From Candidatus Pacebacteria bacterium RIFOXYA1_FULL_38_18 (lineage in GTDB: Bacteria > Patescibacteriota > Microgenomatia > UBA1400 > PJMF01): DNA of 64,000 nt. Numbering within the stretch: position 1 is the first letter of the stretch; every line of letters starts with the position of its first letter. This document shows positions 5,676-51,482 of the stretch, one piece after another. Below the pieces are notes generated by a model that was not told where the DNA came from, ran no database searches, and was given only the letters and a program-made list of their open reading frames with translations. The stretch covers positions 15,694 to 79,693 of the forward strand of contig MFWV01000007.1 in the NCBI GenBank assembly GCA_001787405.1, given 5' to 3'. The position numbers and the translations under genes were made by a program.

Positions 5676-6599
5676 GTGCAAACCCAAATTATTGATGGCT
5701 TTCAATTAGCCGAGCAACACCGTTTAGCCCTCGCTCCTCGAGTTAAAGAACTACTTGCTCAGGGCAAAAAACCAAGTGTGGCAGCAATCTTATTTGTCGA
5801 AGATTCTGGTAGCGTGTTGTACACCAAACTCAAACGAGAAATGGCGCAAAGTCTGGGTATTAATTATCAAATTTTTTCATATTCACTCAATGACTCGGTT
5901 CAGCAAGTTGCTAGTAAGATTGAAGAGCTTGGCAGAGATGCAAAAGTGACTGGAATCATCGTCCAAAAACCTTGGCGCAACTTATGGATCGTTACTCGTA
6001 AGCTTGAATTGGAACAAGGAAAACGAGAGTTTTCCGCCTGGTGGAAGCAACTAACTTCTGCCATTAATCCAGTCAAAGATGTTGATGGTCTGCATCCCTC
6101 AACTTTAACAGCCATTCAATCAGGCACTTGGCAGATAAAAAACAAAGTTTTGCCAGCCACCTGCAAAGCTGTTATTGAACTTGCCAAAGAAGCTTTTGCC
6201 ACTGAAGATTTATTTGCTTACCTTAAAAATCAGCAATTAAAAACAATCATTTTGGGCAAGTCAGATTTGTTGGGTCAACCGTTATTTGCATTACTTAACT
6301 CAAAAAAATTATTAGTAGAAATGATTGGTTCACAGGAATTAAGCAAAAGAATAGAACAAAAAGTTTTTTTAACTGATGCCGATCTAATCATCAGCGCCAC
6401 TGGCCGAAGAAAACTCGTAACCGGTGCATTGATTAAAACTGGAGCTGTCATCATTGATGTGGGCGAACCACAGGGAGATGTAGATTTGACTAGCGTCTTG
6501 AATAAAGCCAAGGCGGTTACTCCAGTACCAGGCGGAGTAGGGCCAATGACAGTGATTTGTTTGCTGGAAAATACCATCGAGTTACTAGATATGTTATAA
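5676..6599 (+). CDS. folD: bifunctional methylenetetrahydrofolate dehydrogenase/cyclohydrolase FolD, with a GTG start
   Basis: C-terminal VTPVPGGVGPMTVICLLENT and a KDVDGLHP motif. There is an atypical roughly 25-aa insertion before the KDVDG motif. Confidence 0.8.
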   Translation: MQTQIIDGFQLAEQHRLALAPRVKELLAQGKKPSVAAILFVEDSGSVLYTKLKREMAQSLGINYQIFSYSLNDSVQQVASKIEELGRDAKVTGIIVQKPWRNLWIVTRKLELEQGKREFSAWWKQLTSAINPVKDVDGLHPSTLTAIQSGTWQIKNKVLPATCKAVIELAKEAFATEDLFAYLKNQQLKTIILGKSDLLGQPLFALLNSKKLLVEMIGSQELSKRIEQKVFLTDADLIISATGRRKLVTGALIKTGAVIIDVGEPQGDVDLTSVLNKAKAVTPVPGGVGPMTVICLLENTIELLDML

Positions 6600-6618: not shown

Positions 6619-6957
6619 ATGAATATAGCAGAAGTCTTATCGACCGGCGGTAGTTTTTTTCATTCACGACCAACTAAGGAGCGTGGTGTTGTTGATCTTG
6701 GTGATCTTGGTGAATTGTTAAAACAAGAATTAAAACAGTTTACTCCTGATCTTAATTTCGAATCGATTCAAGCTTTGGTTGAAAAACATGGTGGCAGTTT
6801 GGAGTTGATTGCTGATGAAGACGAAACCTTTTGGACTCTAATATTTAAAAAGCCCATCGGTTTGGAACAACAAAAAGGAAGTAAAACCAGTATTACTAAT
6901 TCTAGTAAAGAAAAAATAATGCAATCAGCATACTGGTTGATCATTACGTCTTTATAA
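6619..6957 (+). CDS. hypothetical protein
   Basis: 112-aa ORF between folD and rpsB with no recognisable motif. Coding status is uncertain. Confidence 0.3.
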   Translation: MNIAEVLSTGGSFFHSRPTKERGVVDLGDLGELLKQELKQFTPDLNFESIQALVEKHGGSLELIADEDETFWTLIFKKPIGLEQQKGSKTSITNSSKEKIMQSAYWLIITSL

Positions 6958-7104
6958 GAACCAATTTCTGTTTTGCCAAAATCCAGACTATCAAGTATAA
7001 TTCCGTTTATTATTAGTTACTTTCGCTAATTCACTTTAAGCGTCCTGCAATTTGGTGAATGAAGCGCTCTCGCTAAAGAAAGTGAGAAAATAAGGACAAA
7101 AAAT

Positions 7105-7858: not shown

Positions 7859-8326
7859 ATGTCATTTTCTATGGATGATCTCAAAAAATTACGCACAGAA
7901 ACAGGTGCTCGGGTGATGGATGCCAAAAAAGCTTTGGAAGAAGCTCAAGGTGATTTTGCCAAAGCTAAACAATTGGTCGAAGAAAAAGGTTTGGCCAGAG
8001 CAGAGAAGACCGTTGACCGAGAAACAAAAGCTGGTTTTATTGCCAATTATGTTCACAATAATGGGCAAGTAGCCAGTCTTGTTGAGTTGGTTTGCGAAAC
8101 AGATTTTGTGGCTCAGAATCAAGAATTTCGAGATTTAGGTCGTGAAATTGCCATGCAAGTTTCTGCCATGAATCCTGCTGATGTAAAAGAGCTTTTGGAT
8201 CAAGAATTTATTCGTGATGCCAGCCAAACTATCGGAAAATTGATTAAGTCACTCAGTGGCAAAATCGGTGAAAAAATCGAAGTCAGTCGATTTGCACGCT
8301 TTGCGATAGGCGATGAGCAAAAATAA
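7859..8326 (+). CDS. tsf: elongation factor Ts, short 155-aa form
   Basis: N-terminal LRTETGARVMDAKKAL...AKA plus a conserved dimerisation core. It lies immediately downstream of rpsB. Confidence 0.85.
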   Translation: MSFSMDDLKKLRTETGARVMDAKKALEEAQGDFAKAKQLVEEKGLARAEKTVDRETKAGFIANYVHNNGQVASLVELVCETDFVAQNQEFRDLGREIAMQVSAMNPADVKELLDQEFIRDASQTIGKLIKSLSGKIGEKIEVSRFARFAIGDEQK

Positions 8327-8374
8327 AAATAGCTCTGCTTTACACTTTCCCTATATTTTCTGCATAATGCACTA

Positions 8375-9319
8375 GTGAAAGATTTCATTGGTTTGAAACC
8401 CAAGCATAAGAATCCTCGTTCTGGGATTGGCCATAACAAGAAAAAAACTTCTACTAGTCGTTTTATTCGTTGGACAACCGGTTTGAGTTTATTAATTGTG
8501 CTGGTTTTCTTTATTGCCTTAGTTTTTAGATCTTTGCCTTGGGCCGATATTTTTACTGGCCGAACCTCTGAAACAGTCTTGTTTGTCACTGAACAAGTTG
8601 AACAAAGTGGGGCGTTTTTAATCAAGTTTGATTTTACTAATTTGCAAGTGGATGTTTATCCCGTTCCTTCTGATTTAGCTATGGAAGTATTGGGAGGTTA
8701 TGGAAATTATCGTTTTCAGGCTGTTTACCCTTTATTAAAATTGGAAGGTCAGGATATTTCTTTTATTCGTTCCACTATGAGTCTTTCCACTGGTGTTTTG
8801 CTGGATGAGTTATGGCCAGTTAATACCAATCACTTGCAATTAGATCAACTTGCTTATCTAAAAACTTTTTTTCTAAAAAATTTTCTGGCTGGCTCGCACA
8901 TTGCTTTAAAACATAAATTAAGTTGGTTAGGATTAGTTCTGGACCAACGTTCTGAAATTACTATTCATCAACCTTTGGTAATCTTACCTGTTTCCAATTT
9001 ATCGCAAGCAAACACCAGCAAAGAGTTATTGTGCACTGTTGCTTTGGTCAATACTACTTCTTTAAATGGTTTGGCCGGCAGAATTGAGCATTTGCTGGAA
9101 AGTCACGATTTTAGAGTCATAAGGACTACGAGTGACGATACTTTGATAGAAAAAACTACGGTAATTTCGGCAGAAGACTTATCTGATGATTGTCAACAAG
9201 TATTTAACAAAATCTTGAAACTGGTGCCCAGCGAGGTAGTATTACAGCAAAATGCTCAAGAAACTTCTTATTATCGAGCTGATCTAGTGATAAAGTTGGG
9301 GACAGACCTTGTTTGGTAG
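8375..9319 (+). CDS. membrane-anchored protein with a C-terminal LytR_C-like domain
   Basis: N-terminal TM helix. The C-terminal ALVNTTSLNGLAGRIEHLLESHDFRVIRTT...YYRADLVIKLG resembles the LytR_C domain (cell envelope-related transcriptional attenuator). Confidence 0.45.
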   Translation: MKDFIGLKPKHKNPRSGIGHNKKKTSTSRFIRWTTGLSLLIVLVFFIALVFRSLPWADIFTGRTSETVLFVTEQVEQSGAFLIKFDFTNLQVDVYPVPSDLAMEVLGGYGNYRFQAVYPLLKLEGQDISFIRSTMSLSTGVLLDELWPVNTNHLQLDQLAYLKTFFLKNFLAGSHIALKHKLSWLGLVLDQRSEITIHQPLVILPVSNLSQANTSKELLCTVALVNTTSLNGLAGRIEHLLESHDFRVIRTTSDDTLIEKTTVISAEDLSDDCQQVFNKILKLVPSEVVLQQNAQETSYYRADLVIKLGTDLVW

Positions 9320-9322
9320 GAT

Positions 9323-10078
9323 TTAGTAATCTTCACCTTTATTAATTTTCTCCAAAGTGTCTTCAAATTCTTTATTACGATCATTCTCATGCTCACCGGT
9401 CTCGACTGGAATATCATCCTCTATGAGAAATTCTTCATCTGCATTCAAGCTGGAAATAATTTTATTGTTTAATTTGCCGACTGGGAAAGATTGAAAATGT
9501 TTATTTTTGGCTGATATCTTTATTTCTCTCAAATGCACACTGCAGCTATTTTCAGAAAAAGAATGAACTAAACACTGGTATTCATTGCCTCGCTTGATAA
9601 GCTTGTTGAGTCGATAAGAAAGATCGTCTGGTAGGGCGCCGATATATTTACCGCTCTCGGTTGCAATTGATAAATATTTGTTCTTTTTACTTACTAGTTT
9701 GCAAGGTTCTCCAACGCGAAGTTTTATAAGGGTATTTTTGGGTGCCAAACGATGGAGCTCAGCAATCTTGGTTCTGCCTGGTTCTTCGATAAAATAAGTG
9801 TTGGAGATAGGAGCAGCAGTGCCGTTTTTGTTTTTTAGATTGTCCAAATGTTTTTTGGCAATTAAATTGGATTTATCTTTTTCCAAAACAGCCTTGAAAG
9901 CTTGTCGGGCTTTGATCGGTTTGCCCAATTGAGCATAGGCCAACCCCAAACGATTAAGTGCTCCCAAATCATTATTTGAGCGTTCTAGAATTTGCTCGTT
10001 GATCTTGATGGCATCTTCCCAAGCCTGAGTTTTGGCGGCGGCAATGGCTTCTTGGACAAGTGTGGCGTATTTTTTCAT
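9323..10078 (-). CDS. TPR-repeat protein with an uncharacterised C-terminal domain
   Basis: N-terminal TPR-like helices (AWEDAIKINEQIL...LGLAYAQLGKPIKARQAFKAVLEKD). The rest is unrecognised. Confidence 0.45.
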   Translation of the reverse strand: MKKYATLVQEAIAAAKTQAWEDAIKINEQILERSNNDLGALNRLGLAYAQLGKPIKARQAFKAVLEKDKSNLIAKKHLDNLKNKNGTAAPISNTYFIEEPGRTKIAELHRLAPKNTLIKLRVGEPCKLVSKKNKYLSIATESGKYIGALPDDLSYRLNKLIKRGNEYQCLVHSFSENSCSVHLREIKISAKNKHFQSFPVGKLNNKIISSLNADEEFLIEDDIPVETGEHENDRNKEFEDTLEKINKGEDY

Positions 10079-10812: not shown

Positions 10813-11580
10813 ATGCGCCGAAGAGAAAAATTTGTTTTTGCTGCTACTTTGCTGAGTTTGGGATTATTATTAATCCAATATTTTGGAGTGGAGTGGCGCT
10901 ATTGGGCTTTTGCTATTTTTATGATTACTACTTATTTTGTTTCAGCTTGGGCGTTGACTGATGATTTACAACCCCATGAATGGTTGACTATTTTGCCTTT
11001 CCCTGCCTTGTACGCTGGATCGGTTTCTTTATTTTACTTTTTGCTACCTAGTGCATTTTTGACTAGAGTTTTAATTTTAGCTTTATTTGGTGTTGGAATG
11101 TATGGCTTATTTCTTACCAGTAACATTTTTTCAGTTGCCAAAGGTCGTACCATTCAGTTATTGTATGCTGCCCATGCTGTAGGCTTGTTTTTCACCCTTT
11201 TTACCTCCATGCTGTTCACCAATGCTATTTTTTCCTTAAAATTGCCTTTTTACACCAATGGTGTCCTAGTTGGTCTAATTCATTTTCCTCTGATTCTAAT
11301 GAGTTTGTGGTCGATTAAACTGGAACCATTAATTAGTCGTGCAATCTGGAGTTTTTCTTTATTGCTGACCTTGTTATTGATTGAACTAGTAATTTTGTTT
11401 TCACTTTTACCTTTGCCGGCTTGGCATGTGGCCTTATTTGTAATGGGCTTTTTGTATATTGGTTTGGGCGTGTTACAGAGTCAAATTAGAGAGCGACTAT
11501 TTCAAAATACAGCCAATGAGTATTCATTGGTGGCCATTTTCTTGGGCTTAATCTTCTTGATTTTATTTCCGTGGAAATAA
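10813..11580 (+). CDS. hypothetical polytopic membrane protein
   Basis: About 7 hydrophobic helices over 255 aa; no family recognised. Confidence 0.4.
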   Translation: MRRREKFVFAATLLSLGLLLIQYFGVEWRYWAFAIFMITTYFVSAWALTDDLQPHEWLTILPFPALYAGSVSLFYFLLPSAFLTRVLILALFGVGMYGLFLTSNIFSVAKGRTIQLLYAAHAVGLFFTLFTSMLFTNAIFSLKLPFYTNGVLVGLIHFPLILMSLWSIKLEPLISRAIWSFSLLLTLLLIELVILFSLLPLPAWHVALFVMGFLYIGLGVLQSQIRERLFQNTANEYSLVAIFLGLIFLILFPWK

Positions 11581-11651
11581 AAATACTCGTTTTCAATGAG
11601 GCTTCAAGATTTTTGGGGCCTGATCAGTGTTGCTTGAGTTTTAATCACTGT

Positions 11652-11680
11652 TTTTTTAGCCTGGTATCCAGGCTAAAAAA
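11652..11680. repeat. 29-bp perfect palindrome TTTTTTAGCCTGG-TAT-CCAGGCTAAAAAA
   Basis: Read directly. Thirteen-bp arms flank a 3-bp centre. It shares the AGCCTGG/CCAGGCT core with the palindrome at 12066. Confidence 0.6.
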
Positions 11681-12065
11681 TAAGAGTGGAGGAGGCCAGA
11701 AGTAGCCAGATTAGGGTGATTAGGTTTGGTTTCGGAATTGGTTAGTCTTGAGTGTCCTTCAAGAGACTTGGTAGTTAAAAGAAATCAATTAAAAACATTT
11801 TTCAAGATTTAAAAATTAAATTAAGCTTAAAAATAGGGAAGTGTGAAGCGAAAAAAAGGGTGCCCATCCAGATAGGGAAGAGAATAATGATATAGTTTGA
11901 TACATTGTGGAAAACTCTAATAAATTATAGGATTTCTCGTGAAAATATTATAGGATCGTTATTCTAGCGTACCAGGCTAAATGATATAGTTTTATGCAGT
12001 TTCTTGGTTGTATATACCCAGTATTTGCAAGAATAATTTAAGGTCCATAGCCTGGAAGAGAGTTG

Positions 12066-12094
12066 GCATGTCCAGGCTTATAGCCTGGACATGC
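12066..12094. repeat. 29-bp perfect palindrome GCATGTCCAGGCT-TAT-AGCCTGGACATGC; candidate recombinase (dif-like) or regulator site
   Basis: Read directly. A partial third copy (ATAGCCTGGA) lies at 12048-12057. It sits about 1.1 kb upstream of the Xer-like recombinase gene. Confidence 0.5.
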
Positions 12095-13146
12095 CTGAAT
12101 ATTAGTCATCAGTCGATTGGAGAAGAAGAACACAAAAAACCCGAATGACCGTTTTTGGCCGGTTTGAAAGGATCGCTATCTGGCACGAGAGAAGTATCTT
12201 TAAAGGAAAACTAATAAAGATAAATATTTGTACAAAAAGAGAGTGGCAGGGTACTCTCACTCCCTTTTGCTTTATCCTCAATCTCTCTAACTGACTATGT
12301 CGCACAATATAACTTTTACGACGTAATGTCAGGCTAAAACTGAAAAGCGCAAATTTCACTATTTTAATATTCTTTGACTATTATCTTGATTTATCCGATC
12401 TTTACTCTGAATTGGTTTCTTATTGCTTCTCTTCTTCTTATTAATTTATTAATTAATGATGGAGCTTGGCAAATTTCTTGAGGTTTATATCTGGTTTTAC
12501 TTGATTTATCTTTGAGTGAATATTCTGACAAAATCTTTACCAATTGAGCAATTTATCAGTGGCTTATTGAGGGGTTCAAGTTTCAAAATCAGCTTTAGAA
12601 ACCCAGCCAAACCATGTGAACGTTTTTGAAACAAAAGATTGATATATCAATCTAATTTTCTTCAATGATAGATAGATCGTTTTTAATAAAAAAAGCCGTT
12701 TTTGAGCTATTAGAACGGCTCAAAAAACTTTGGTCGGTAAGGATTGAGTTGGCGATCAGATCGACAATCAGCTGAAGTCAAATTTGACAAATTTATTGTA
12801 AGTAAAATTTGGATGAGTTTCGATAAAACTTAATTAGCAAAACATTGATTGATTGTTAATTAATCGTTTTTTGAAAAACAGTTTGAATTTTTATTAAGCG
12901 AAAGATTCTTTGAATTAAATAATTTACAATCAGACTCTCGGCTTTTATTAAAAAGTCTCTTGAGAAAGCCAAAGTCCGTTTTTACTTAAAAGTTACGATC
13001 GATCAAACTTGGGAATCTCAGATGCATAAAGGAATTAAAATTGATTTATCAGGACTTTTAAGCGATTTTGGCTTTTAGCAGTAATTTAACTGCTCTGACA
13101 ATGACTTATAGTATCTCAACTAATTTTCAAGCAATTTTTCTCGACT

Positions 13147-13175
13147 TTGACTATACTCAGTTTTTCTTTTACGAT
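13147..13175 (+). promoter_or_regulatory. candidate sigma70 promoter TTGACT, 17-bp spacer, TACGAT, for the Xer-like gene
   Basis: Hexamers and spacing read directly. A GAGAGGAG RBS precedes the ATG at 13187. Confidence 0.35.
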
Positions 13176-13186
13176 GAGAGGAGCCT

Positions 13187-14125
13187 ATGGCAATTACTAC
13201 TTCTCCATCCCCTGCTTTGATCGAATTCCTCGAGTCACTCGAAGTAGAGCGCAATCTCTCCCCTCTTACTTTGCGCAACTATCATCATTATTTACGTCGT
13301 TTTATTGATTGGTTTACCAATCAGGGCCATCATGACCTCAAGGAGCTCGACAGAGATATCTTGAGGAAATATCGAGTTTTTCTCTCTAGATATTCAGATG
13401 AACAAGGCAGAACTTTATCCAAAAAAACCCAGAGTTATCATATTATTTCTCTGCGCTCTTGGTTTAAGTGGTTGACCAAGAATGATGCTGAAGTCTTAAA
13501 CTCCGAAAAAATAGAGTTGCCCAAGGCAGAATCAACACCGATGAAGTTTGTTTCTGCCGAGAAGATTCAGCGCCTACTCAATGAACCTGATCTGAGCAAA
13601 CCCAAGGGCTTGCGAGATCGGGCTATTTTGGAAGTGCTTTTTTCGACCGGCTTGCGGGTTAGTGAATTAGTTGGCCTCAATCAAGATCAAATCGACCTTA
13701 ATCGACGAGAATTTGGAGTGATTGGTAAAGGTCGCCGGCCCAGAGTGGTATTTTTGAGCGATGAAGCGGCCGATTGGCTGACTCGCTGGCTCAACACGCG
13801 TCAAGATAATTGGCGGCCAGTCTTCACTCGCTTTTCTGGGAAGAAACCAGACCTTTTGGCTGATGGTGAGGAGATGCGTTTGACGACTAGAAGCGTGCAG
13901 AGATTGGTAGATAGATATAGTCGGAGAGCTCGCCTGCCCATCAAGCTATCACCTCACGGCATTCGTCATAGTTTTGCTACGGATTTACTGAGTAATGGTG
14001 CTGGCTTGAGAGATGTTCAAGAAATGTTGGGTCATAAAAACATTGCCACTACTCAGATTTACACCCACGTTACTCAGCCCCAACTGCGCAAAGTTCATGA
14101 GAAGCATCACTCAAAGACACATTAG
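13187..14125 (+). CDS. XerC/XerD-family tyrosine site-specific recombinase
   Basis: N-terminal core-binding domain (LSPLTLRNYHHYLRRF). The catalytic region has RDRAILEVLFSTGLRVSE, HGIRHSFAT and LGHKNIATTQIYTHV (R...H-x-x-R...Y). Confidence 0.8.
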   Translation: MAITTSPSPALIEFLESLEVERNLSPLTLRNYHHYLRRFIDWFTNQGHHDLKELDRDILRKYRVFLSRYSDEQGRTLSKKTQSYHIISLRSWFKWLTKNDAEVLNSEKIELPKAESTPMKFVSAEKIQRLLNEPDLSKPKGLRDRAILEVLFSTGLRVSELVGLNQDQIDLNRREFGVIGKGRRPRVVFLSDEAADWLTRWLNTRQDNWRPVFTRFSGKKPDLLADGEEMRLTTRSVQRLVDRYSRRARLPIKLSPHGIRHSFATDLLSNGAGLRDVQEMLGHKNIATTQIYTHVTQPQLRKVHEKHHSKTH

Positions 14126-42691: not shown

Positions 42692-44752
42692 TTAATTAGC
42701 CGTAGGGGTAGTTTTTTTATTATTGTCTTGATAGAAAATGAGTGGTTGCCATGTTTTGGCTAGTTTGTTTTGTAATTGATGAGCTTCTTGAATTAGTTTC
42801 AAGTTTGTCCAAGAAGCAAATCTCAAGTCGCTCAAACCATGTTGGCGAAAACCAAATAAATCTCCAGCTCCGCGATTTTTTAAATCCTGCTCGGCTAGTT
42901 TTAGGCCATCGTGTTCTTGGGAAAAAATCTTAAGGCGTTGAGCAGCTGATTTGGAGAAATTACTCATTGATAATAAACAAAAACTTTCCTGCCCGGCGCG
43001 GCCGACACGGCCGCGCAATTGGTGTAAGCTAGCCAGACCGAAGCGCTCTGCCCCCTCGATTACTACGACGTTGGCTGAAGGGAGATCTATGCCTACTTCT
43101 ACTACTGGGGTGGTGATTAAAACATCAATTTTTTTGGCAAAAACTTGTTCGATGATTGCTTGTTTTTGATCTGGTTTAAGTGAGCCGTGTAGCAAACCAA
43201 TTTTAAGTTTGGGAAAGCTTTTTTGAAAGTTTGTTTGAATTTCTTTAAATAATTTGGTAGCTGCTGTTACATTGCCCAGTGTTTCGTGCAGTGAAGGTTC
43301 GATGAAAGGACAGACAATCAAAGCTTGACCATGAGTGTGAGTGATTTTTTCTGCCAGCCATTGCCAGCCATCAGATCTTTTTTTATGAGGGACTAACCAA
43401 GTTTTGGTAGGTTTAATTCCGGGAGGCAACTCGTCAATCACACTCAAACTCAAATGCGAAAACAGAGTGAGCATTAGACTTCTGGGAATGGGTGTGGCAG
43501 ACATAGTCAAAACGTGAGGTGTTTTATTTTTAGTTTTGAGTGGTGAGCGTTGTTTGACTCCGAACCGATGCTGCTCGTCGTAAATAATTAAACTTGGTTG
43601 AATTAAATCCAAGCGATTGATGACAGCGTGAGTACCGATATAGAGTTTTGGACTGATGCTTGGTTTAAATTTGGCAGATTCTTTACTAGTGAGTTGTTCA
43701 ATTTTCAAATCAGGAAACAATTTTGTTAAACTTTCTGCGTGTTGTTGGGCCAAGATTTGAGTTGGTGCAATCAAAACAGCATTTAATTGATTTTGCCAAA
43801 CAAAGTGGGCAGCAATGCCGGCCACTACGGTTTTTCCAGAGCCTACATCACCAGTCAATAATCGATTCATGGCAACATCTTTTTGTAAATCGATCAAGAT
43901 TTCGCGAGTAGCTTTGACCTGGGCCCCAGTTAATTTGAAAGGAATGCTTTTGGGCAACCAAGCTGAGAAGTTATGGGCATCATAATTTTTGAGCTGGAGC
44001 GGCTGGGCGCTATGTTCTTTTTGCCATTTAGCTTTGATTTGGTGTGAGTGAGCAATCAATCCCAGCAGTTCTTCTAGCGCCAGCCGCTCCCGCGCAGACT
44101 CAACCTCTTTAGTTTCTGAAGGGAAATGTAGAGTTTGCAAAGCCTCAATAAAATTGGGATATGTTTGTTCAGTCAATTTGACAATTTGATCATCAATCAC
44201 TTGTAAATGATCCACGATTTCTTTGATGATTCTGCGCAATGAACCAATTTTTAATTCCTTGGTTAATTGTGAATAAATCGGTACCAACCGAGCAGTATGA
44301 ATAGTATCGTCACTAATTATCTCCACTGTTGGCTGAACAAACATACCTCGCTCATTTAACTTGCCAGCAAAATATAATTCACTCCCCTCTTTGAGCTGAT
44401 TGATCACAAAACGATTATTAAACCAAATGCATTGCAGTTTTCCGCTAGCATCTTCGATGGTAGCGCGCACCGTTCTTCGCCTGCCTTGATAGGAAATATT
44501 GGCACGTCGTACCACTGCTTTGATAGTAGCTGGTTCATCAATTTTGAGTTCATTGATAAACACAATATTACTGCGATCTTCATAGCGATACGGCAGTTGC
44601 AATGTTAGGTCCAATACAGTTTGAATTTCCACCTGATTAAGCGCTCTTCTCAAAGTTTCCCCAATGCCTTTGACGACTGAAATAGGATCACTAAGTCGAT
44701 AAATCATTAATAGCAGTGTACGAGAAAAACAATAAAAACCAAAGCAGTGCAA
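42692..44752 (-). CDS. recG: ATP-dependent DNA helicase RecG
   Basis: N-terminal wedge/OB domain, a helicase Walker A motif LLTGDVGSGKTVVA, a DEQH box and a C-terminal helicase domain. Confidence 0.9.
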   Translation of the reverse strand: MHCFGFYCFSRTLLLMIYRLSDPISVVKGIGETLRRALNQVEIQTVLDLTLQLPYRYEDRSNIVFINELKIDEPATIKAVVRRANISYQGRRRTVRATIEDASGKLQCIWFNNRFVINQLKEGSELYFAGKLNERGMFVQPTVEIISDDTIHTARLVPIYSQLTKELKIGSLRRIIKEIVDHLQVIDDQIVKLTEQTYPNFIEALQTLHFPSETKEVESARERLALEELLGLIAHSHQIKAKWQKEHSAQPLQLKNYDAHNFSAWLPKSIPFKLTGAQVKATREILIDLQKDVAMNRLLTGDVGSGKTVVAGIAAHFVWQNQLNAVLIAPTQILAQQHAESLTKLFPDLKIEQLTSKESAKFKPSISPKLYIGTHAVINRLDLIQPSLIIYDEQHRFGVKQRSPLKTKNKTPHVLTMSATPIPRSLMLTLFSHLSLSVIDELPPGIKPTKTWLVPHKKRSDGWQWLAEKITHTHGQALIVCPFIEPSLHETLGNVTAATKLFKEIQTNFQKSFPKLKIGLLHGSLKPDQKQAIIEQVFAKKIDVLITTPVVEVGIDLPSANVVVIEGAERFGLASLHQLRGRVGRAGQESFCLLSMSNFSKSAAQRLKIFSQEHDGLKLAEQDLKNRGAGDLFGFRQHGLSDLRFASWTNLKLIQEAHQLQNKLAKTWQPLIFYQDNNKKTTPTAN

Positions 44753-44879
44753 TTTTCCTCAACTTTTTCAGTTTTAAAGTAAAGAAAAAACAAAACTAGC
44801 AATGCTGGTCATGAGCAATGAAGCAATGGCTATGATCGCAAAAGCCTTGACCATTCTCTCTCTTTGTTTGCGAGTCATC

Positions 44880-46073
44880 TTAGTCGATTAGTTTATAAAT
44901 TTTACGTTTACCCACTCGAATAGCATCAACGGTTTGCAGATCAGGAATTTCATTAGGATCATTGATTCTTTGATTGCTGGGCAATAAAGCAGTGCCACCC
45001 TGCTCAATCAATCTTCTAGATTGGCTATTGCTTGCTCCACTAGCAAGAGAAACCATCGCAAAAGCAGGTTTGCCAACCAAGACAGCTCTTTTGATTTGCT
45101 GCGCTTCATCAGAAATTACTTTATTTTGAATGGTATCTTCAAAATGTTGCTGTGCTTTTTCCGCTTCTTTAGTTGAATGATATTGCTCAGTGATAGTGAA
45201 GGCCAATTGTTTTTTGAAAGTCATGGGGTTCTCCCCTGCTCTCATCGCCTTATCCATCTTGGCAATCTGACTGGAATGAACATCAGTTAAAAGCAGAAAG
45301 TACTCAATAATCAAGTTATCAGTAATTCGCATCAGCTTGCCATACATATCAATAGGATTTTCTGCCAATCCTACAAAGTTGTTGTAAGATTTACTCATTT
45401 TGCGGCCATCAGTGCCATTGATAATTGGTGTAGTCAGTACCCACTTTTCTTTATTGTGGTAAATTTTTTGCAAAGTTCTACCCATCATCATGTTGAAAGT
45501 TTGATCAGTGCCTCCCAACTCCAAATCAACATCCATTTCCACTGAGTCGTAACCTTGTAGTAGCGGATAGAGAATTTCATGACCATGAATGGGTTGTCCT
45601 TTTTTGATTCGTTCTTGGAACATGTCGCGTTCAATCAATTGCTGAACCGTGGTTTTGGCGGTTAACTTAATCACATCCACCATGGTCAATTTATCCAGCC
45701 AATCGCCATTGCGACGAATCTCTATTTTGGAAAAATCTAGGACCTTACTGGCCTGTTTCTTCCAAGTTTTGAAATTAGCCTCAATTTCCAAATCAGTTAA
45801 CATGGGTCTGGACTCATCGCGACCAGTAGGATCGCCAATCTTCACCGTGCCATTGCCGATCAATAAAATCACCTGATGACCAAGCAGAGCAAACTGATTG
45901 AGTTTACGCAAAACTACCGAGTGACCCAAATGCAGTTCAGAACCAGTTGGATCAATTCCCAAGTAGAGTCTGATTTTGCGCTTGTTCATCAATTTTTCCA
46001 GACCGGAACGGCTAGGCAAAACCTCCGCCACTCCTCTGGTTAGGACTTCTTTGATAGTTAAATTATTTGACAT
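44880..46073 (-). CDS. tyrS: tyrosyl-tRNA synthetase
   Basis: HIGH-type motif LHLGHSV, KMSKS motif and a C-terminal S4 RNA-binding domain (SNSQSRRLIEQGGTAL). Confidence 0.85.
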   Translation of the reverse strand: MSNNLTIKEVLTRGVAEVLPSRSGLEKLMNKRKIRLYLGIDPTGSELHLGHSVVLRKLNQFALLGHQVILLIGNGTVKIGDPTGRDESRPMLTDLEIEANFKTWKKQASKVLDFSKIEIRRNGDWLDKLTMVDVIKLTAKTTVQQLIERDMFQERIKKGQPIHGHEILYPLLQGYDSVEMDVDLELGGTDQTFNMMMGRTLQKIYHNKEKWVLTTPIINGTDGRKMSKSYNNFVGLAENPIDMYGKLMRITDNLIIEYFLLLTDVHSSQIAKMDKAMRAGENPMTFKKQLAFTITEQYHSTKEAEKAQQHFEDTIQNKVISDEAQQIKRAVLVGKPAFAMVSLASGASNSQSRRLIEQGGTALLPSNQRINDPNEIPDLQTVDAIRVGKRKIYKLID

Positions 46074-46120
46074 AAAACTCCTTTATTGTAATCTAATTAT
46101 TGCTTTCCTCAAAATTACGC

Positions 46121-47161
46121 TTATATAGAATTTGCTCTTTCCAATGCTTGCTCAAGATCATTTATTACTTCCTTGGGTTGCTCTAGTCCGATAGAAAGTC
46201 TAAATAGTCTGTCATCAATTCTTTGATCAGAGTTATCTGAGAGATCCATCATGGTGGTGGGTTGTTGAATTAACGTTTCAGTACCACCAAAACTATGTCC
46301 AATCACGATTTTTTTCAAAGATTTAATGAATAGATGAGGATTCAGATTGTGTTTTATTTTGAATGAAATTATTGGTCCTACCGCATGAAAGACATCTGCA
46401 ATTAATAGTGATGAGCGTAAAAAATTAACTATTTTTTGTTTATTATTTTTAATTTTTTGATGTCTCAAATCGAGTGTTTTTAGACCTCTCATTATTAGCC
46501 AGCTATCACTTGCTGACAAAATTGCTCCCACCGTATGTTGAAGAAACTTAATTTGTTGAGCAAGTTGTGCATCGTTGGTAGCGATCATTCCACCAATGGC
46601 ATCTGAATGGCCGTTAATCATTTTCGTTAGACTTTCAACTACTAAATCTGATCCAAGTTGTAACGGTTTTTGTTCCAAAGCTGTAGCCAAAGTATTGTCC
46701 ACCACAGTGATGATGTTGTGCTGACGAGCAACTTTGCACAATTTATTAATTTGGAGCACTTCCAACATTGGGTTGGTTGGGCTTTCAAACCACAATAGTT
46801 TGCTGTGCGGAGTAATATTTTGAGAAAGTAGATCAACTTTTTTCAAATCAATAGATTTACTATTGATTCCTAACGGCTGGAATACTTTTTTCAACAGTCT
46901 GGTTGTCCCTTCATAGATTTGTTGATGGTGTAGCACCTCATCTCCTTTTTTGAGGAGTAATAATGAATTGAGAATAGCTGCCGAGCCTGATGCAAACACA
47001 AAAGCATGTTTGGCATGGTGAAGTGTGGCCAGTTTTTCTTCCAGCAACTGTCTTGTTGGATTTCCCACCCGACCATATTGAAAACCTCGATCGCTACTAG
47101 GTTTAGTCATGGGAAATACAGTTGAAAGTTCTATGGGAGGCACTAATCCTGGATTTTTCAT
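46121..47161 (-). CDS. Cys/Met-metabolism PLP-dependent enzyme (cystathionine gamma-synthase/beta-lyase/gamma-lyase family)
   Basis: PLP-Lys motif VVESLTKMINGHSDAIGG and the general fold of this family. Its start overlaps (ATGA) the stop of the upstream gene. Confidence 0.75.
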   Translation of the reverse strand: MKNPGLVPPIELSTVFPMTKPSSDRGFQYGRVGNPTRQLLEEKLATLHHAKHAFVFASGSAAILNSLLLLKKGDEVLHHQQIYEGTTRLLKKVFQPLGINSKSIDLKKVDLLSQNITPHSKLLWFESPTNPMLEVLQINKLCKVARQHNIITVVDNTLATALEQKPLQLGSDLVVESLTKMINGHSDAIGGMIATNDAQLAQQIKFLQHTVGAILSASDSWLIMRGLKTLDLRHQKIKNNKQKIVNFLRSSLLIADVFHAVGPIISFKIKHNLNPHLFIKSLKKIVIGHSFGGTETLIQQPTTMMDLSDNSDQRIDDRLFRLSIGLEQPKEVINDLEQALERANSI

Positions 47162-48240
47162 TGGATCCTTTCTTTAGTTTTTTTAGTTAGAAGCACAATG
47201 TGTCTGTGGCAACTTAGTGGCGGTTGATGGCTATCAATGCCGATACGATCTTGCATGTCAGCAATAATCAACCCATCTTTTTCCCAAGTTTTGAGATGAT
47301 CATTAAATGATCTAAACCACTCGCCATGACCGCTTTCGTCTTCAGCAAATACCACAAAACTTTCACCTTCTGGCTCAATCTCAACTATTTTGCCTCTCAG
47401 AAATTCTAGATGTTCTCCAAACTCTTCTTTGAGCTGGTTTAAATCAAAAATTCTTGTTTGCAAAGCATGAACTGCTTCGCTAGAGGGAAGAATAGTTTGA
47501 AGCTGGTGGTGAGAAATTATTTCTCTATCTAGTGATTTAGTTAGCTCATCACTAGTTGTGATATTAACAATGGCTACACCATCCTCATCAAGGACACGTG
47601 TTACTTCTTCATTGATTGATCTGCTGATAGCTGGTGGGCAACAGTTATCAATATGATCTCTCAGTACAAGTTGTTGAGAAGCCTCATGAAGCGAGGTTTG
47701 TCTAGCATCTTGGTGCAGTGTTGTTACTTGTTGAAATTGTTTCTCATCTACCGCTTTTAGTATGTCTGAGTCAATATCAATTACCGATAATTGATTCCAA
47801 TTTGTTTCTAAAGTAGTTTGAAGAAATTTTTGAAAATCTGGCACACCTTCTACAATAGCCAAGCCAAAAATGGCTGCATCAATTGGTTTCTGCTCTAAAT
47901 TTTCGCGCAGTATTGCCACTGATGATTCTTTTTGAAGAAGTAATCTGAGATTTAACCCAACTGGCGGTGTTCCAGCAATGTCTTCCAAGTTAATACCTTG
48001 TCGTTCTGCTTCAATCACTCGCTGTTGAGTATTTTCGTATTGAGCGTGTTGTCTTAAACTTTGCCCAAATTTAGTCCCAATTTCTCCTGCTAAGTTGGTA
48101 ACTGATTCATCTTTACAATCATTTGCCAGCAACTCAAATGTCTTGAGTGATAGCCAGTTTTTCCAGGATGATTGCTGATCCTTTATGCTCTTGCCTAATT
48201 CAAGAGCAAGATGATGTTTAATTCTTAATTTTTCTGTCAT
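47158..48240 (-). CDS. hypothetical cytoplasmic protein; first gene of a T-box-controlled operon
   Basis: A 360-aa acidic protein with no motif I can assign. It lies directly downstream of the T-box leader and is translationally coupled to the PLP enzyme. Confidence 0.5.
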   Translation of the reverse strand: MTEKLRIKHHLALELGKSIKDQQSSWKNWLSLKTFELLANDCKDESVTNLAGEIGTKFGQSLRQHAQYENTQQRVIEAERQGINLEDIAGTPPVGLNLRLLLQKESSVAILRENLEQKPIDAAIFGLAIVEGVPDFQKFLQTTLETNWNQLSVIDIDSDILKAVDEKQFQQVTTLHQDARQTSLHEASQQLVLRDHIDNCCPPAISRSINEEVTRVLDEDGVAIVNITTSDELTKSLDREIISHHQLQTILPSSEAVHALQTRIFDLNQLKEEFGEHLEFLRGKIVEIEPEGESFVVFAEDESGHGEWFRSFNDHLKTWEKDGLIIADMQDRIGIDSHQPPLSCHRHIVLLTKKTKERIQ

Positions 48241-48327
48241 TTTTCTTTCTTTTTAAATAAAATATTATTACTTTTTTGGCGCCGATTTAGCGCGATTCTA
48301 TAGTCTATTTCCATAATTACCTTTCTT

Positions 48328-48690
48328 TTTTAATACTAAAAAACGCCCCGCACATACACCTGAATGGTGTACATGCAAGGGCGTTAAGATCCAACGCGGT
48401 ACCACCTTGCTTTATTTGCCTTTTTCTACAAAAAATCCTGCGAACGCAGGACTCGAAAAAAAGGAAAACCTCATTTCGAGCACTCTGTTTCTAGTGTGTC
48501 ATGCTCTTTCGCTATTATGGGCGATCCCATTCCTTGCTACTTTCCAAGATGAAATTTGGATTTGGTGTGGACTGCTCAGGAAGGTATTTCATTCTGTTAA
48601 AGCTAGTTCAGCTTTCACCAACCGCTGAATCTCTGTTTTCCGCTTTAGGAATTACTAAGTTTCCGTCACTGCATTTCTGTTAACTTGTTC
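48328..48690 (-). promoter_or_regulatory. T-box riboswitch leader with a Met (AUG) specifier, antiterminator and intrinsic terminator
   Basis: All on the minus strand. The T-box sequence AAGGUGGUACCGCG is the reverse complement of plus 48395..48410. The antiterminator has A1 AAGG/CCUU, the 7-nt bulge UGGUACC and A2 GCGUU/AACGC. The terminator is AACGCCCUUGCAUGUACACC-auuc-AGGUGUAUGUGCGGGGCGUU plus UUUUUU. Stem I has an AGAGA bulge, a distal loop GGUUGGUGAAAG and a specifier loop ...AGA-AUG-A.... A Stem III-like hairpin lies at 48436..48451. Confidence 0.7.
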
Positions 48691-48695
48691 GTGAA

Positions 48696-48723
48696 ATTAT
48701 ACACATGGTTTTTTAGTTTGCAA
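48696..48723 (-). promoter_or_regulatory. strong sigma70 promoter TTGCAA, 16-bp spacer, TATAAT (TG-extended) driving the T-box leader
   Basis: Read directly on the minus strand. A TG sits immediately 5' of the -10 hexamer. Confidence 0.6.
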
Positions 48724-48761
48724 GTTTTAATTTGAAAAGCAAAAAACTGGTACAATAATGT

Positions 48762-51482
48762 GTGAGTATGGAAATCAATTTTACAAAGATGTTTGAAAGT
48801 TTACGACGGGGGTGGTACGGACTGACCCGTAAAGTTCGGATTTTGATGATTCGTCTGTCTCGTGGTCGCACTCGTCGTTTTGCTCACTTCTCCCCTGCCC
48901 AACAAGAATTGGCCAAAGTACAACGCATGCGTCTGCTTGCTCGTGGAGCAGTGATGGCGGTTATTGCGGGGATTGTTGGATTTTTTGTAATGTTTGCTTG
49001 GTATTCTCGCGATTTGCCAAAGCCTGGTGAAGTGATCCGTCGTGAAGGATTTAGTACCAAACTTTATGATCGCAAAGGAGTATTACTCTATGATCTTTAT
49101 GACACTGAGAGACGCACGCCAATAACTCTAAACGATACTCCCGCTTATTTGGAACAAGCTACGGTAGCTATCGAAGACAGGGATTTTTATCGTCACAGTG
49201 GTTTTGATTTATTGACCGCTCTGCGGATTCCTTACAACATTCTTTTTCGCGGTCGAGTAGTTGGTGGCTCAACCTTGACTCAACAATTAGTAAAAAATGC
49301 TTTATTAACAAATGAGCGGACCATCTCTAGGAAATTCAAAGAATTGGTACTTTCTATCCAAATTGAACGCACTTTTACCAAGGATCAAATCTTGGAAATG
49401 TATTTGAATGAAGCACCTTACGGTGGAACTTCTTGGGGAGTTGGTACGGCTTCAGAAATTTATTTCAATAAACCAGTTGCTGAATTAAATTTGATGGAAT
49501 CGGCTTTTTTGGCAGGACTTCCTCAACGCCCCAGTGTTTACTCACCGTTTTCAGGTAAAAAAGACAAAGACGGTAATCCTTATTGGAAGATTCGTACCGA
49601 AAGTGTGTTGCGCGCCATGGAAAAATCCGGTGATATTACCAAGTTACAAATGGAAGAAGCAATTTCCTCTTTAGATAATTTGGAATTCAATACGACTGCT
49701 GCCAATATTAAAGCCCCACATTTTGTTTTTTATGTTAGAGATCAGCTGGAAGAAATGTTTGGTTTGGAATTGGTAGAGGCTGGTGGTCTGAAAGTAACTA
49801 CTACTTTGGATTTACCACTTCATGAACGGGCTCAAAGTATTGTTGCCGAAGAAATCGAGGCAGTGGAAAGTTTGAATATCACCAATGGATCAGCCGTGAC
49901 AATGGATCCTAGAACTGGTGAGATATTAAGCATGGTGGGAAGCAAAGATTATTTTAATGATGACATAGATGGCCAATTCAATGTGGCTGCGGATGGTTTG
50001 CGCCAACCCGGATCTTCGATCAAACCAGTTACTTATTTAGGTATGTTACGTCGTGGTTATTCTCCCTCCTCCATGCTGATGGATGTAGAAACTACTTTTC
50101 AGGCCAATGACAAGATCGATCCTTACGTTCCCAAAAACTATGATGGGGTTTTCCGAGGTCCAGTAAACTTGCGCAGTGCCTTAGGCAGTTCACTAAATAT
50201 TCCAGCCGTCAAATCAGTAGCTATTGTAGGCATTGAAGATTTTCTGCAACTGGCTTTTGATTTGGGTTTCAAAACTTTGGAGCCGACTAAAGAAAATTTA
50301 CAGCGTTTTGGTTTTTCAATCACTTTGGGTGGTGGCGAGGTTCATTTACTGGATACCGTAACTGCTTACAGTGCTTTTGCCAATAAAGGTTTTAAAGTTG
50401 AGCCGGTTTCTATTTTGAAAGTAGAAGACAAGGACGGTCGAGTTTTGTTTGAACACAAACAAGTGCCCGGCAAACAAGTCATCAGTGAGGGTGAGGCTTT
50501 TATTATTAATGATATTCTGTCTGATAATAATGCTCGCTTGTTGGCTTTTGGTGCCAACTCGCTTCTCAATACCGGTCGACCAATTGCAGTCAAAACTGGT
50601 ACTACCAACGAACAAAAAGACAACTGGACGATTGGTTGGAGCCAAGAAGTAATGGTGGGTGTTTGGGTGGGTAACAATGATAATAGCTCGATGCGTCAGG
50701 TAGCTTCTGGTATTACTGGTGCCTCACCTATTTGGCGACGAATTATTTTGACGGCTTTAGAAATGGGCTATCAAGCTCCGGCTTGGGAAGTTCCTGCTGG
50801 AGTGATTCGGCAAGAAGTAGATAGTATTTCTGGTTATCCAGCGCACGATGGTTTTTCCACTAGAACAGATTATTTTTTACAAGGCACTGCGCCCACCACT
50901 CCTGATCCTATTCATGCCAAACTAAAGGTTTGTCGAGATGATGAAAATAAATTGGCTACGGAAGCCAAAATTAGTGCTGGAGATTACAACGAAAAAGAAT
51001 TTGTTGTACTCAAAGAAAATGATCCAGTTAGCGAAGATGGTCGCAATCGCTGGCAAGAAGCCATCAATACTTGGATCAATGGCCAGTCGGATTCTCGTTA
51101 TAAAGTGCCTACAGAATACTGTGGAGATGCACAAGAAATCTCGGTTCGTATTTCCAGACCAGAGAACGAAAAATCATACAATGAACAAGACATCGAAGTT
51201 CATATTGATGCTGGAAGCAATCAGGGTATTGAAAAAATCGAGATTTGGGTAGATGGAACATTACGGGAAACAGTAAATGATCGCAGTTATAGAGGTTGGA
51301 TCAATTTTCCAACAGGCAAACATGAGCTTTATGCGATTGCTTTTTCCAGAGATAATAAACAAGCCAAAAGCAACACGGTCAAGATAGGTTCTGGTGGTGC
51401 TGATTGGAAAGATCCTGAACCCACTCCCACCCCCACTCCTACTCCTACTCCTACCCCCACTCCTGCTCTACCCACTCCCTAG
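48762..51482 (+). CDS. class A penicillin-binding protein (bifunctional glycosyltransferase/transpeptidase) with a C-terminal extension and Pro-Thr tail
   Basis: N-terminal TM helix. GT51 motif EDRDFYRHSGFD. Transpeptidase motifs SSIKP, SLN and KTGT. The C-terminal roughly 200 aa ends in (PT)n. Confidence 0.85.
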   Translation: MSMEINFTKMFESLRRGWYGLTRKVRILMIRLSRGRTRRFAHFSPAQQELAKVQRMRLLARGAVMAVIAGIVGFFVMFAWYSRDLPKPGEVIRREGFSTKLYDRKGVLLYDLYDTERRTPITLNDTPAYLEQATVAIEDRDFYRHSGFDLLTALRIPYNILFRGRVVGGSTLTQQLVKNALLTNERTISRKFKELVLSIQIERTFTKDQILEMYLNEAPYGGTSWGVGTASEIYFNKPVAELNLMESAFLAGLPQRPSVYSPFSGKKDKDGNPYWKIRTESVLRAMEKSGDITKLQMEEAISSLDNLEFNTTAANIKAPHFVFYVRDQLEEMFGLELVEAGGLKVTTTLDLPLHERAQSIVAEEIEAVESLNITNGSAVTMDPRTGEILSMVGSKDYFNDDIDGQFNVAADGLRQPGSSIKPVTYLGMLRRGYSPSSMLMDVETTFQANDKIDPYVPKNYDGVFRGPVNLRSALGSSLNIPAVKSVAIVGIEDFLQLAFDLGFKTLEPTKENLQRFGFSITLGGGEVHLLDTVTAYSAFANKGFKVEPVSILKVEDKDGRVLFEHKQVPGKQVISEGEAFIINDILSDNNARLLAFGANSLLNTGRPIAVKTGTTNEQKDNWTIGWSQEVMVGVWVGNNDNSSMRQVASGITGASPIWRRIILTALEMGYQAPAWEVPAGVIRQEVDSISGYPAHDGFSTRTDYFLQGTAPTTPDPIHAKLKVCRDDENKLATEAKISAGDYNEKEFVVLKENDPVSEDGRNRWQEAINTWINGQSDSRYKVPTEYCGDAQEISVRISRPENEKSYNEQDIEVHIDAGSNQGIEKIEIWVDGTLRETVNDRSYRGWINFPTGKHELYAIAFSRDNKQAKSNTVKIGSGGADWKDPEPTPTPTPTPTPTPTPALPTP

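Follow-up and report, generated by a model that had tools for sequence, protein, structure and literature searches.

We analysed a stretch of 64,000 nucleotides from the contig MFWV01000007.1 of Candidatus Pacebacteria bacterium RIFOXYA1_FULL_38_18, which we refer to as the window. On its minus strand, a T-box leader is followed by an open reading frame (ORF) for a 360-residue protein (ORF360), the gene for a 346-residue pyridoxal-phosphate (PLP) enzyme of the Cys/Met-metabolism family, and tyrS, encoding a bacterial-type tyrosyl-tRNA synthetase (TyrRS) (Table 1). The ORF list and the RF00230 match confirmed the original prediction, made from the DNA letters alone, that ORF360 is the first gene after the T-box. 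The predicted ATGA overlap of the ORF360 stop codon and the start of the PLP gene was also found in the sequence, an arrangement for translational coupling. That prediction had not mentioned tyrS, which lies 47 nt beyond the PLP gene on the same strand, has its own ribosome-binding site, and is followed by recG. Scanning 44700..48900 yielded a single terminator-like hairpin, at the end of the T-box leader, and none between ORF360, the PLP gene, and tyrS. A promoter-like site lies directly 5' of the leader; its score alone is not above chance, and its position is what counts. The layout would be best explained as a single transcription unit consisting of promoter, T-box(Tyr) leader, methyltransferase-fold gene, gamma-lyase-like PLP gene, and tyrS. 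Basal tyrS expression might, speculatively, come from a weak promoter-like site in the spacer before that gene.

Run over the whole window at gathering thresholds, the Rfam scan gave two tRNAs and no T-box, and E-value mode was needed to find the leader, which a focused scan then matched over its full length (85.1 bits, E = 6.5e-19). Stem I carries the S-turn strands AGUA (48656..48653) and GAA (48590..48588) as well as the apex motifs AGAGA...GGUGAAAG (48634..48607), and the covariance-model match also includes Stem III. The 5' arm of the terminator, AACGCCCUUGC, is at the same time the 3' arm of the antiterminator bearing UGGUACC, so that the two helices are mutually exclusive. The 85-nt stretch with the terminator hairpin folds at -35.7 kcal/mol (z = -4.5), and none of 200 shuffled sequences was as stable.

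The original prediction had taken this T-box for a sensor of tRNA-Met. We retrieved homologous loci using the 360-residue protein and aligned their leaders with that of the window. The codon UAC is present in 13 of 13 homologous leaders ahead of the gene pair (14 of 14 including the window), and GAA-(A/U)-UAC stands right before the helix strand in 12 of these 13, the leader of locus L003 reading ..UUUUAC-A there. The base 5' of UAC varies between A and U. In the window, the lower helix of the specifier loop is formed by GGAA (48664..48661) and UUCC (48582..48579), and this flanking helix covaries over the 14 leaders (GGAA/UUCC, GGAG/CUCC, GGUG/CGCC, AGAG/CUCU, UUAGG/CCUAA). The UGGU bulge is complementary to a tRNA 3' end ACCA with discriminator A (A73), and the tRNA-Tyr genes from homologous operons have an A after the acceptor stem. 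Among the other registers, AUA (Ile) and AAU (Asn) were ruled out by the L008 leader, which reads GAAUUAC, leaving UAC as the only invariant part. AUG (Met) at 48592..48590 was ruled out as well, since it consists of the final two bases of the upper helix and the G of the S-turn GAA and occurs in the window leader only, in none of the 13 others. Induction by an uncharged tRNA, as originally proposed, is thus retained with the T-box itself, but the alignment indicates that the window T-box is a sensor of tRNA-Tyr and not of tRNA-Met. The case cautions against inferring T-box specificity from one sequence alone.

The established T-box mechanism, together with the UAC specifier, the UGGU bulge, and the mutually exclusive helices, leads us to expect read-through on uncharged tRNA-Tyr. 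Its GUA anticodon would pair with UAC and its ACCA end with UGGU, and the antiterminator stabilised in this way would let RNA polymerase into the three genes, whereas charged tRNA-Tyr would let the terminator form.

The comparisons across relatives were made on loci, the surroundings of the pair or of tyrS. A gene-neighbourhood comparison, proposed with the original prediction, found the pair conserved: the PLP gene directly follows the ORF360 homologue in all 27 other loci. Among the first 19 loci, a T-box was found in 10 of 10 with a bacterial-type tyrS after the pair and in 0 of 9 of the rest, and three further loci (L024-L026) have the same layout of T-box, pair, and bacterial-type tyrS. 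Where the T-box is missing, the pair is mostly followed by a gene for an archaeal-type TyrRS (NF006330, 366-381 bits; cut-off 220). The linkage of the pair to tyrS thus outlasts a change of synthetase type, which is bacterial in one clade and archaeal in the other. In five loci of the T-box kind (L004, L009, L017, L024, L025), a tRNA-Tyr(GUA) gene lies between the terminator and the pair. A T-box in such an operon would regulate the gene of its own ligand. Degenerate tRNA-like remnants that retain the acceptor and T arms and have lost the anticodon arm occupy the same position in L005 and L006 (~5865..5940) and L008 (~5825..5925), and L002 (5790..5935) has a duplicated segment and a long-arm tRNA of 89 nt, which is Asn (GTT) according to ARAGORN. 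The bacterial-type TyrRS goes with a long-arm tRNA-Tyr in the window and L001-L009, and the archaeal-type with a short-arm tRNA-Tyr in L010, L011, L013-L016, L019, L020, and L112. These gene neighbourhoods are closely related, and it seems that within Microgenomates one synthetase/tRNA pair has displaced the other.

Relatives without a T-box carry a different kind of Tyr-specific leader. Short ORFs with runs of Tyr codons lie just 5' of the pair in 12 of 12 T-box-less loci (for example ..SYYYQLLYGG.. and ..SYLYGHYLY), often with a second one in tandem (ATYYYPAQ, NNYQNYY..). GC-rich terminators follow them in L014 and L023, where the scan found them, and in L011, L020, and L022, where they were recognised by eye; in L010 the terminator scan found none after the Tyr leader. 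The YGG codons of the leader (GGCGGG) could pair with the terminator arm CCCGCC, and the whole arrangement looks like the layout of a ribosome-mediated attenuator, Tyr-specific and in Patescibacteria. In L023 and L007 such leaders stand ahead of a pair without tyrS downstream, and in L020 the pair has two Tyr leaders of its own while a separate UAC T-box serves tRNA-Tyr, DUF554, a HisC-like aminotransferase, and TyrRS. From these three loci it follows that the Tyr regulation is aimed at the pair itself. The separate T-box of L020 (~8270..8500) has a very short Stem I (GGAG-AAAUAC-CCUCC) and is followed by a 73-nt short-arm tRNA-Tyr, DUF554 (no Tyr in 231 residues), the HisC-like aminotransferase, and the archaeal-type TyrRS. 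The same locus also holds a 55-residue ORF (7998..8165) that joins a TyrRS N-terminus to a PLP-enzyme C-terminus, a rearrangement scar.

The chromosomal slot occupied by the pair holds other genes in other relatives. In the attenuator clade, the flanks are Acs upstream on the opposite strand and TyrRS, MurI, and an RRM protein downstream. Between these flanks, L027 and L028 carry Phe/Tyr leaders with terminators and then a DAHPS-DHQS-EPSPS-SK-SDH-CS-CM-aminotransferase-PDH/PDT operon ending at tyrS. L011 has, of this aro operon, the DAHP synthase alone behind its leaders, with a YYY leader and the pair next. The leaders in question have alternating Phe and Tyr codons (FYFYF), and each has its own terminator. 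What follows is either DAHP synthase or the whole shikimate-tyrosine/phenylalanine operon; L016 and L018 still have a leader of this kind although the operon is absent. In the T-box clade, covered by 80 TyrRS loci, PBP and tyrS are mostly ~100-200 nt apart, and the gap between them is filled in L038 (5277..5969) by a 230-residue phenylalanine-4-hydroxylase homologue, in L085 (5088..5983) by prephenate dehydratase and chorismate mutase, and in L055 (4216..5808) by a UAC T-box and an unknown 396-residue protein with no family match. Ahead of tyrS in L044 (2455..5966) are a UAC T-box, tRNA-Tyr, a canonical UbiE-like methyltransferase (259 residues), a core MetE-type methionine-synthase homologue (367 residues), and an unknown 285-residue protein. 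L044 is thereby a second instance of a methyltransferase and a homocysteine enzyme under tyrosine control; hhalign found no relation of its 285-residue protein, or of the 396-residue protein of L055, to the ORF360 family. In L112, a trpR-like gene, a stand-alone trpB, and trpS face the pair and tyrS tail-to-tail, which by sequence is an arrangement of the type 'salvage enzyme plus cognate synthetase'. This second unit (11094..13614, minus strand) comprises a TrpR/YerC-like gene, the tryptophan synthase beta subunit (573 bits), and TrpRS with no trpA nearby, and it resembles an operon for indole salvage, here in a member of Patescibacteria.

The proteins of the pair are depleted of tyrosine. 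ORF360 has one Tyr in 360 residues (0.28%; binomial P = 9e-4), the lowest content of the 52 window ORFs of at least 150 residues, and the PLP enzyme has two in 346 (0.58%; binomial P = 6e-3; joint P with ORF360, 1.3e-5), at a window mean of 2.44%. Across loci, both families average ~0.8% Tyr versus 3.4% in 149 neighbouring ORFs (Mann-Whitney p ~1e-14), and there is no depletion of Phe, Trp, Met, or Cys. The PLP enzyme has kept only two tyrosines, the conserved one of its YxR-NPTR motif and the PLP-stacking Tyr. The three cargo proteins of L044 all have ~0.8% Tyr, and Tyr-poor genes alongside the pair include a prephenate-dehydrogenase-like gene (L022), the HisC-like aminotransferase and DUF554 (L020), and DAHP synthase (L011), with 2.4-4.6% Tyr in unrelated flanking genes at the same three loci.

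Table 1. Features of the window and of homologous loci (L numbers), with their coordinates.
Feature	Locus	Coordinates	Strand	Basis or remark
Promoter-like site TTGCAA-16-TATAAT	Window	48696..48723	-	10/12 matches
T-box leader	Window	48374..48678	-	RF00230, full model 1-219
Specifier codon UAC (Tyr)	Window	48584..48586	-	In loop GAA-A-UAC-C (48590..48583), just 5' of UUCC
T-box sequence GCAAGGUGGUACCGCG	Window	48395..48410	-	Covariance-model alignment; carries bulge UGGU (48404..48401)
Intrinsic terminator hairpin and U tract	Window	48338..48385	-	Terminator scan and folding
ORF360	Window	47158..48240	-	ORF list; predicted divergent class I SAM-methyltransferase-fold protein
Cys/Met-metabolism PLP enzyme (346 aa)	Window	46121..47161	-	ORF list; cystathionine gamma-lyase-like, catalytic residues intact
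Weak promoter-like site TTGAGG-16-TACAAT	Window	In 47-nt PLP gene-tyrS spacer	-	Promoter scan
tyrS, bacterial-type TyrRS	Window	44880..46073	-	TIGR00234 322 bits (cut-off 113.8); ribosome-binding site AAGGAG
tRNA-Tyr(GUA) gene in Tyr T-box operon	L004	5850..5938		
tRNA-Tyr(GUA) gene in Tyr T-box operon	L009	5850..5936		
tRNA-Tyr(GUA) gene in Tyr T-box operon	L017	5810..5898		
tRNA-Tyr(GUA) gene in Tyr T-box operon	L024	6872..6959		
tRNA-Tyr(GUA) gene in Tyr T-box operon	L025	6813..6898		
tRNA-Tyr(GUA) gene in Tyr T-box operon	L044	3069..3152		
Tyr-codon leaders, all loci	L007, L010, L011, L013-L016, L018-L020, L022, L023			
Tyr-codon leader, example	L014	5831..5950		
Tyr-codon leaders, example	L023	6749..6864 and 6871..6969		
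FYFYF leader	L011	4853..5035		
FYFYF leader	L028	~9605..9990		
FYFYF leader	L027	~9850..9990		
FYFYF leader	L016	5633..5710		
FYFYF leader	L018	1942..2019		

The original prediction could assign no motif to ORF360, and the function of the protein is still uncharacterised, but profile searches do give a weak methyltransferase-fold match. Pfam returned Methyltransf_25 and Methyltransf_11 with E-values of 0.017 and 0.11, under the gathering scores (PF13649, 16.3 versus 27 bits; PF08241, 13.5 versus 21.2 bits), and some homologues carry precomputed Pfam methyltransferase matches. ORF360 was assigned to the Rossmann-like seven-strand methyltransferase fold. The PDB profile search gave only a marginal methyltransferase match, in which D155 (vDId) and D178-A179 (DAR) align with the S-adenosylmethionine (SAM) ribose and adenine contacts of PH0226; the glycine-rich motif I (GxGxG) is altered to G126-x5-G132. 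NCBIfam provided nothing useful for ORF360 or its distant relatives. On these matches, ORF360 is predicted to be a very divergent protein of the class I SAM-methyltransferase fold. The family has the invariant motifs TPPVGLN, DAR, DHxGNCCPP, NITTS, GHGEWFR, and DSHxPPLxCxRH and a predicted invariant Cys-Cys/His/Cys/Arg pocket.

The ORF360 family has few members and is confined to one lineage. Of the 76 homologues that sequence searches returned, and of the loci, all that are named by lineage belong to Patescibacteria/Microgenomates (Pace-, Beckwith-, Roizman-, and Gottesmanbacteria) or to an evidently mislabelled metagenome-assembled genome; a profile search of 1.8 billion representatives gave only 12 clusters below 1e-30. 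Most homologues are ~307 residues long, and the window protein and its two nearest relatives have an extra N-terminal extension of ~50 residues, which is of low confidence in the structure model. More distant relatives (E-values of 1e-16 to 1e-4) have the motifs DFLLNCxP, FEFF, and CxR in common and are fused or adjacent to nonribosomal peptide synthetase (NRPS) modules, whose A domain retains the amino-acid-binding aspartate (FDxS). These partners suggest amino-acid-type small-molecule substrates for the ORF360 family. The A-T-TE NRPS-like partners had raised the idea that the wider family binds aryl-pyruvates, which we rejected because the FDxS aspartate of the A domain indicates amino-acid activation.

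For the PLP enzyme, the predicted membership in the Cys/Met family was borne out (PF01053 Cys_Met_Meta_PP, 329.8 bits, E = 2.2e-98). Among solved proteins it comes closest to cystathionine gamma-lyases and MccB (E = 4e-71 to 1e-70). Behind these rank the H. pylori gamma-synthase, beta-lyases, methionine gamma-lyases, and E. coli MetB, and neither MetB nor MetC of E. coli is as near as the first two. No NCBIfam equivalog cut-off was passed, the best match, 'methionine biosynthesis PLP-dependent protein', scoring 282.7 bits against a cut-off of 585. From this proximity and the lack of an equivalog hit, it follows that the PLP subfamily cannot rescue the methionine-synthesis reading. The motifs YgRvgNPTR, iYEGTtR, DNT, SLTKmiNGHSD, and fRLSiGLE align with cystathionine gamma-lyase, MetB, and MetC, and all the PF01053 hallmarks are present, namely the Schiff-base Lys in S-x-T-K, the PLP-stacking Tyr, the Asp to the pyridine nitrogen, and the carboxylate-binding Arg. 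The pocket of the module family is substituted (AESLGG to AHSFGG, (S/A)MTH to sMM(D/K), and YGG to YEG), and part of the family, including the window protein, is missing the PGLxSHPQH loop.

Because the pair is Tyr-regulated in its own right and sits in the slot of tyrosine-making genes, it most likely raises the tyrosine supply. We lean, with moderate confidence, towards a reading in which the two proteins are tyrosine-starvation-induced enzymes that help to supply tyrosine within a T-box(Tyr)-controlled unit with tyrS. They would be genuine members of a tyrosine regulon, not passengers, raising the tyrosine pool when Tyr-tRNA charging drops. The route would be non-canonical and probably of the salvage type, and it would do the work for which relatives have the shikimate/tyrosine operon, phenylalanine hydroxylase, or chorismate mutase with prephenate dehydratase at this place. 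How it might proceed is speculative. The retained SAM ribose and adenine contacts, the Cys-Cys/His/Cys/Arg pocket, and the NRPS partners of distant relatives lead us to propose that the methyltransferase-fold protein would use SAM to modify or activate an amino-acid substrate, on the product of which the gamma-lyase-like enzyme would perform a PLP-dependent elimination or replacement giving tyrosine. Alternatively, the lyase might remove homocysteine from S-adenosylhomocysteine (SAH) and thereby pull the SAM-dependent step, the methyltransferase and core MetE of L044 being a parallel solution. A more specific version is possible, and we put it forward tentatively: a two-enzyme route to L-tyrosine from a scavenged precursor in Patescibacteria that are devoid of the shikimate pathway, having replaced the aro/tyrA operon in a leader-X-tyrS slot. 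For example, SAM-dependent activation of an alanyl donor such as cysteine and PLP-dependent beta-replacement with a phenolic ring would make a 'tyrosine synthase', comparable to the salvage of indole by a stand-alone TrpB; salvage of a keto acid or of D-Tyr would be other options.

Several points weigh against a role in tyrosine supply. We know of no reaction that would connect tyrosine with a SAM-methyltransferase fold and a cystathionine-gamma-lyase-like enzyme, and if only homology is considered, sulfur amino acids and SAM are what the two families suggest. Every canonical gamma-lyase catalytic residue is kept in the PLP enzyme, so plain sulfur chemistry may be possible. The depletion of tyrosine could reflect only the avoidance of ribosome stalling upstream of tyrS, and the HisC-like and TyrA-like neighbours argue that the pair would not simply be those two steps. 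A scan with the window TyrRS gave 80 metagenome loci (58-87% identity), none of which has the pair; its absence from the loci of the closest TyrRS relatives means that the module is dispensable. Finally, the window T-box, at 85.1 bits, falls short of the Rfam gathering score of 93, which the homologous leaders of L044 (103.9 bits) and L055 (100.0 bits) exceed.

The rival that survives best, although we consider it rather doubtful, is a sulfur and SAM housekeeping module riding in the tyrS operon, in which SAM would be converted via SAH to homocysteine and the lyase would yield cysteine, 2-oxobutyrate, and H2S from cystathionine or homocysteine, as in the Met-to-Cys operons of Bacillus and Clostridium. 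The control by tyrosine would then be inherited from the tyrS leader, with no tyrosine-specific purpose, and the low Tyr content would have evolved only so that ribosomes do not stall on their way to tyrS. Speaking for this rival are the nearest solved proteins to the PLP enzyme (cystathionine gamma-lyases and MccB, which is both a gamma-lyase and a homocysteine desulfhydrase) and its intact catalytic residues, the SAM-contact motifs kept in ORF360, and the homocysteine-using core MetE next to a methyltransferase in the Tyr T-box operon of L044. However, the pair has Tyr leaders of its own where tyrS is missing (L023, L007) or separately controlled (L020), and it fills the slot of tyrosine-supply genes. 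In nine loci with called genes and Pfam annotation, no CBS-like MccA (PALP/CBS), MtnN, or LuxS lies within ~6 kb. There is no S-box and no Cys or Met T-box, and neither Met nor Cys is depleted in the two proteins.

A module for tRNA-Tyr maturation, in which the methyltransferase-fold protein would modify tRNA-Tyr with sulfur or another group from the PLP lyase, is improbable. It would account for the tRNA-Tyr gene immediately 5' of the pair in at least five operons with tyrS downstream. ORF360 is, however, acidic (isoelectric point 5.1) with no recognisable RNA-binding domain, the NRPS-partnered relatives suggest small-molecule substrates, aromatic biosynthesis genes co-occur with the pair, and a Tyr-specific tRNA methylation needing a PLP lyase is not known. 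A Met T-box inducing a two-gene unit for methionine synthesis or salvage, as first predicted from an AUG followed by A near the specifier loop (48592..48589) and compatible with a PLP family that includes methionine-biosynthetic enzymes, one of which is the sub-threshold NCBIfam match, is hardly tenable, because UAC and not AUG is in register and the tRNA-Tyr genes, tyrS, the Tyr leader peptides, and the Tyr depletion all indicate tyrosine; with the specifier, the basis for a methionine supply is lost.

The regulatory element itself would belong to a well-known class, the Tyr T-box, with ordinary logic. It resembles the B. subtilis tyrS T-box (RF00230), the archetype of UAC attenuation, in its Stem I specifier loop, UGGN bulge, competing antiterminator and terminator, and control of tyrS. 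It differs in that two enzyme genes, and in relatives also tRNA-Tyr, lie between leader and tyrS, that the base after the specifier is C where a purine is usual, and that the host belongs to Patescibacteria (the candidate phyla radiation). Amino-acid-specific T-boxes and leader-peptide attenuators usually control how the cognate amino acid is made, taken up, or charged, and Tyr T-boxes of the Bacillus cereus group are found on tyrosine synthesis genes and pah (PMC2494555). The likeness to the latter lies in uncharged tRNA-Tyr inducing tyrosine-making genes, with the phenylalanine hydroxylase upstream of tyrS in L038 as a counterpart, but the cargo here, a divergent methyltransferase fold and a gamma-lyase-like enzyme, contains no recognisable tyrosine enzyme.

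In gene content, the nearest known systems are the Met-to-Cys operons yrrT-mtnN-mccA-mccB of B. subtilis and ubiG-mccB-mccA of Clostridium acetobutylicum, which include the CBS-like MccA and SAH-recycling genes and respond to Cys and Met through CymR, a Cys T-box, and an S-box. They likewise place a class I methyltransferase gene beside an MccB-type gamma-lyase gene, and the Clostridium operon is also controlled by a T-box. In our loci, by contrast, there are just the methyltransferase-fold and gamma-lyase-like genes, the former shares no more than its fold with the methyltransferases of those operons, and the control is Tyr-specific by two independent mechanisms. The T-box-less relatives recall the trp, phe, his, and pheST leader-peptide attenuators of Proteobacteria in their runs of regulatory codons (YYY, or FYFYF ahead of DAHP synthase) with a GC-rich terminator behind them, but they are Tyr-specific, occur in Patescibacteria, are often in tandem, and control this enzyme pair. 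The stand-alone TrpB of the Chlamydia trpRBA type and tyrosine phenol-lyase also make an aromatic amino acid from a ring precursor with a PLP enzyme and without the full pathway, and the trpR-like gene, trpB, and trpS of L112 recall the former. This is an analogy only; TrpB has fold type II, and tyrosine phenol-lyase is a fold-type I enzyme of a different family. We know of no member of the Cys/Met family that forms tyrosine.

Our literature search found no paper on this gene-pair module or on DUF554 and tyrosine, on T-boxes in Patescibacteria, or on Tyr-codon leader peptides in any group. What would be new is a pair restricted to Patescibacteria, a methyltransferase fold and a modified gamma-lyase-like enzyme, under two kinds of Tyr-tRNA sensor and with an apparent replacement of the aromatic pathway. 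Patescibacteria are regarded as reliant on partner organisms for their amino acids. The convergence of two independent RNA sensors of Tyr-tRNA charging, the T-box and the Tyr leaders, on one lineage-specific enzyme pair offers a precise handle that can be tested with a gene pair, a single amino acid, and a clearly defined inducer, and that may reveal new aromatic amino-acid metabolism or salvage.

Two minor observations concern ORF360 and its wider family. Between the T-box terminator and ORF360 in the window lies a 25-residue ORF (MEIDYRIALNRRQKSNNILFKKKEK; 48237..48314, minus strand) with the ribosome-binding site GAAAGG, whose TGA overlaps the ATG of ORF360; ORF360 has no obvious Shine-Dalgarno sequence of its own. 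We treated the small ORF as a chance occurrence because it is not conserved in L001 or the other leaders. In unrelated bacteria, A-T-TE or C-A-T-TE NRPS modules lie beside or are fused to distant ORF360 relatives (L113, 7001..10631; P0103; P0122), and in P0077 (669 residues) the methyltransferase-fold domain of 300 residues is fused at its N-terminus to an uncharacterised region of 370 residues that contains an ELGASAGL motif and matches nothing in Pfam.

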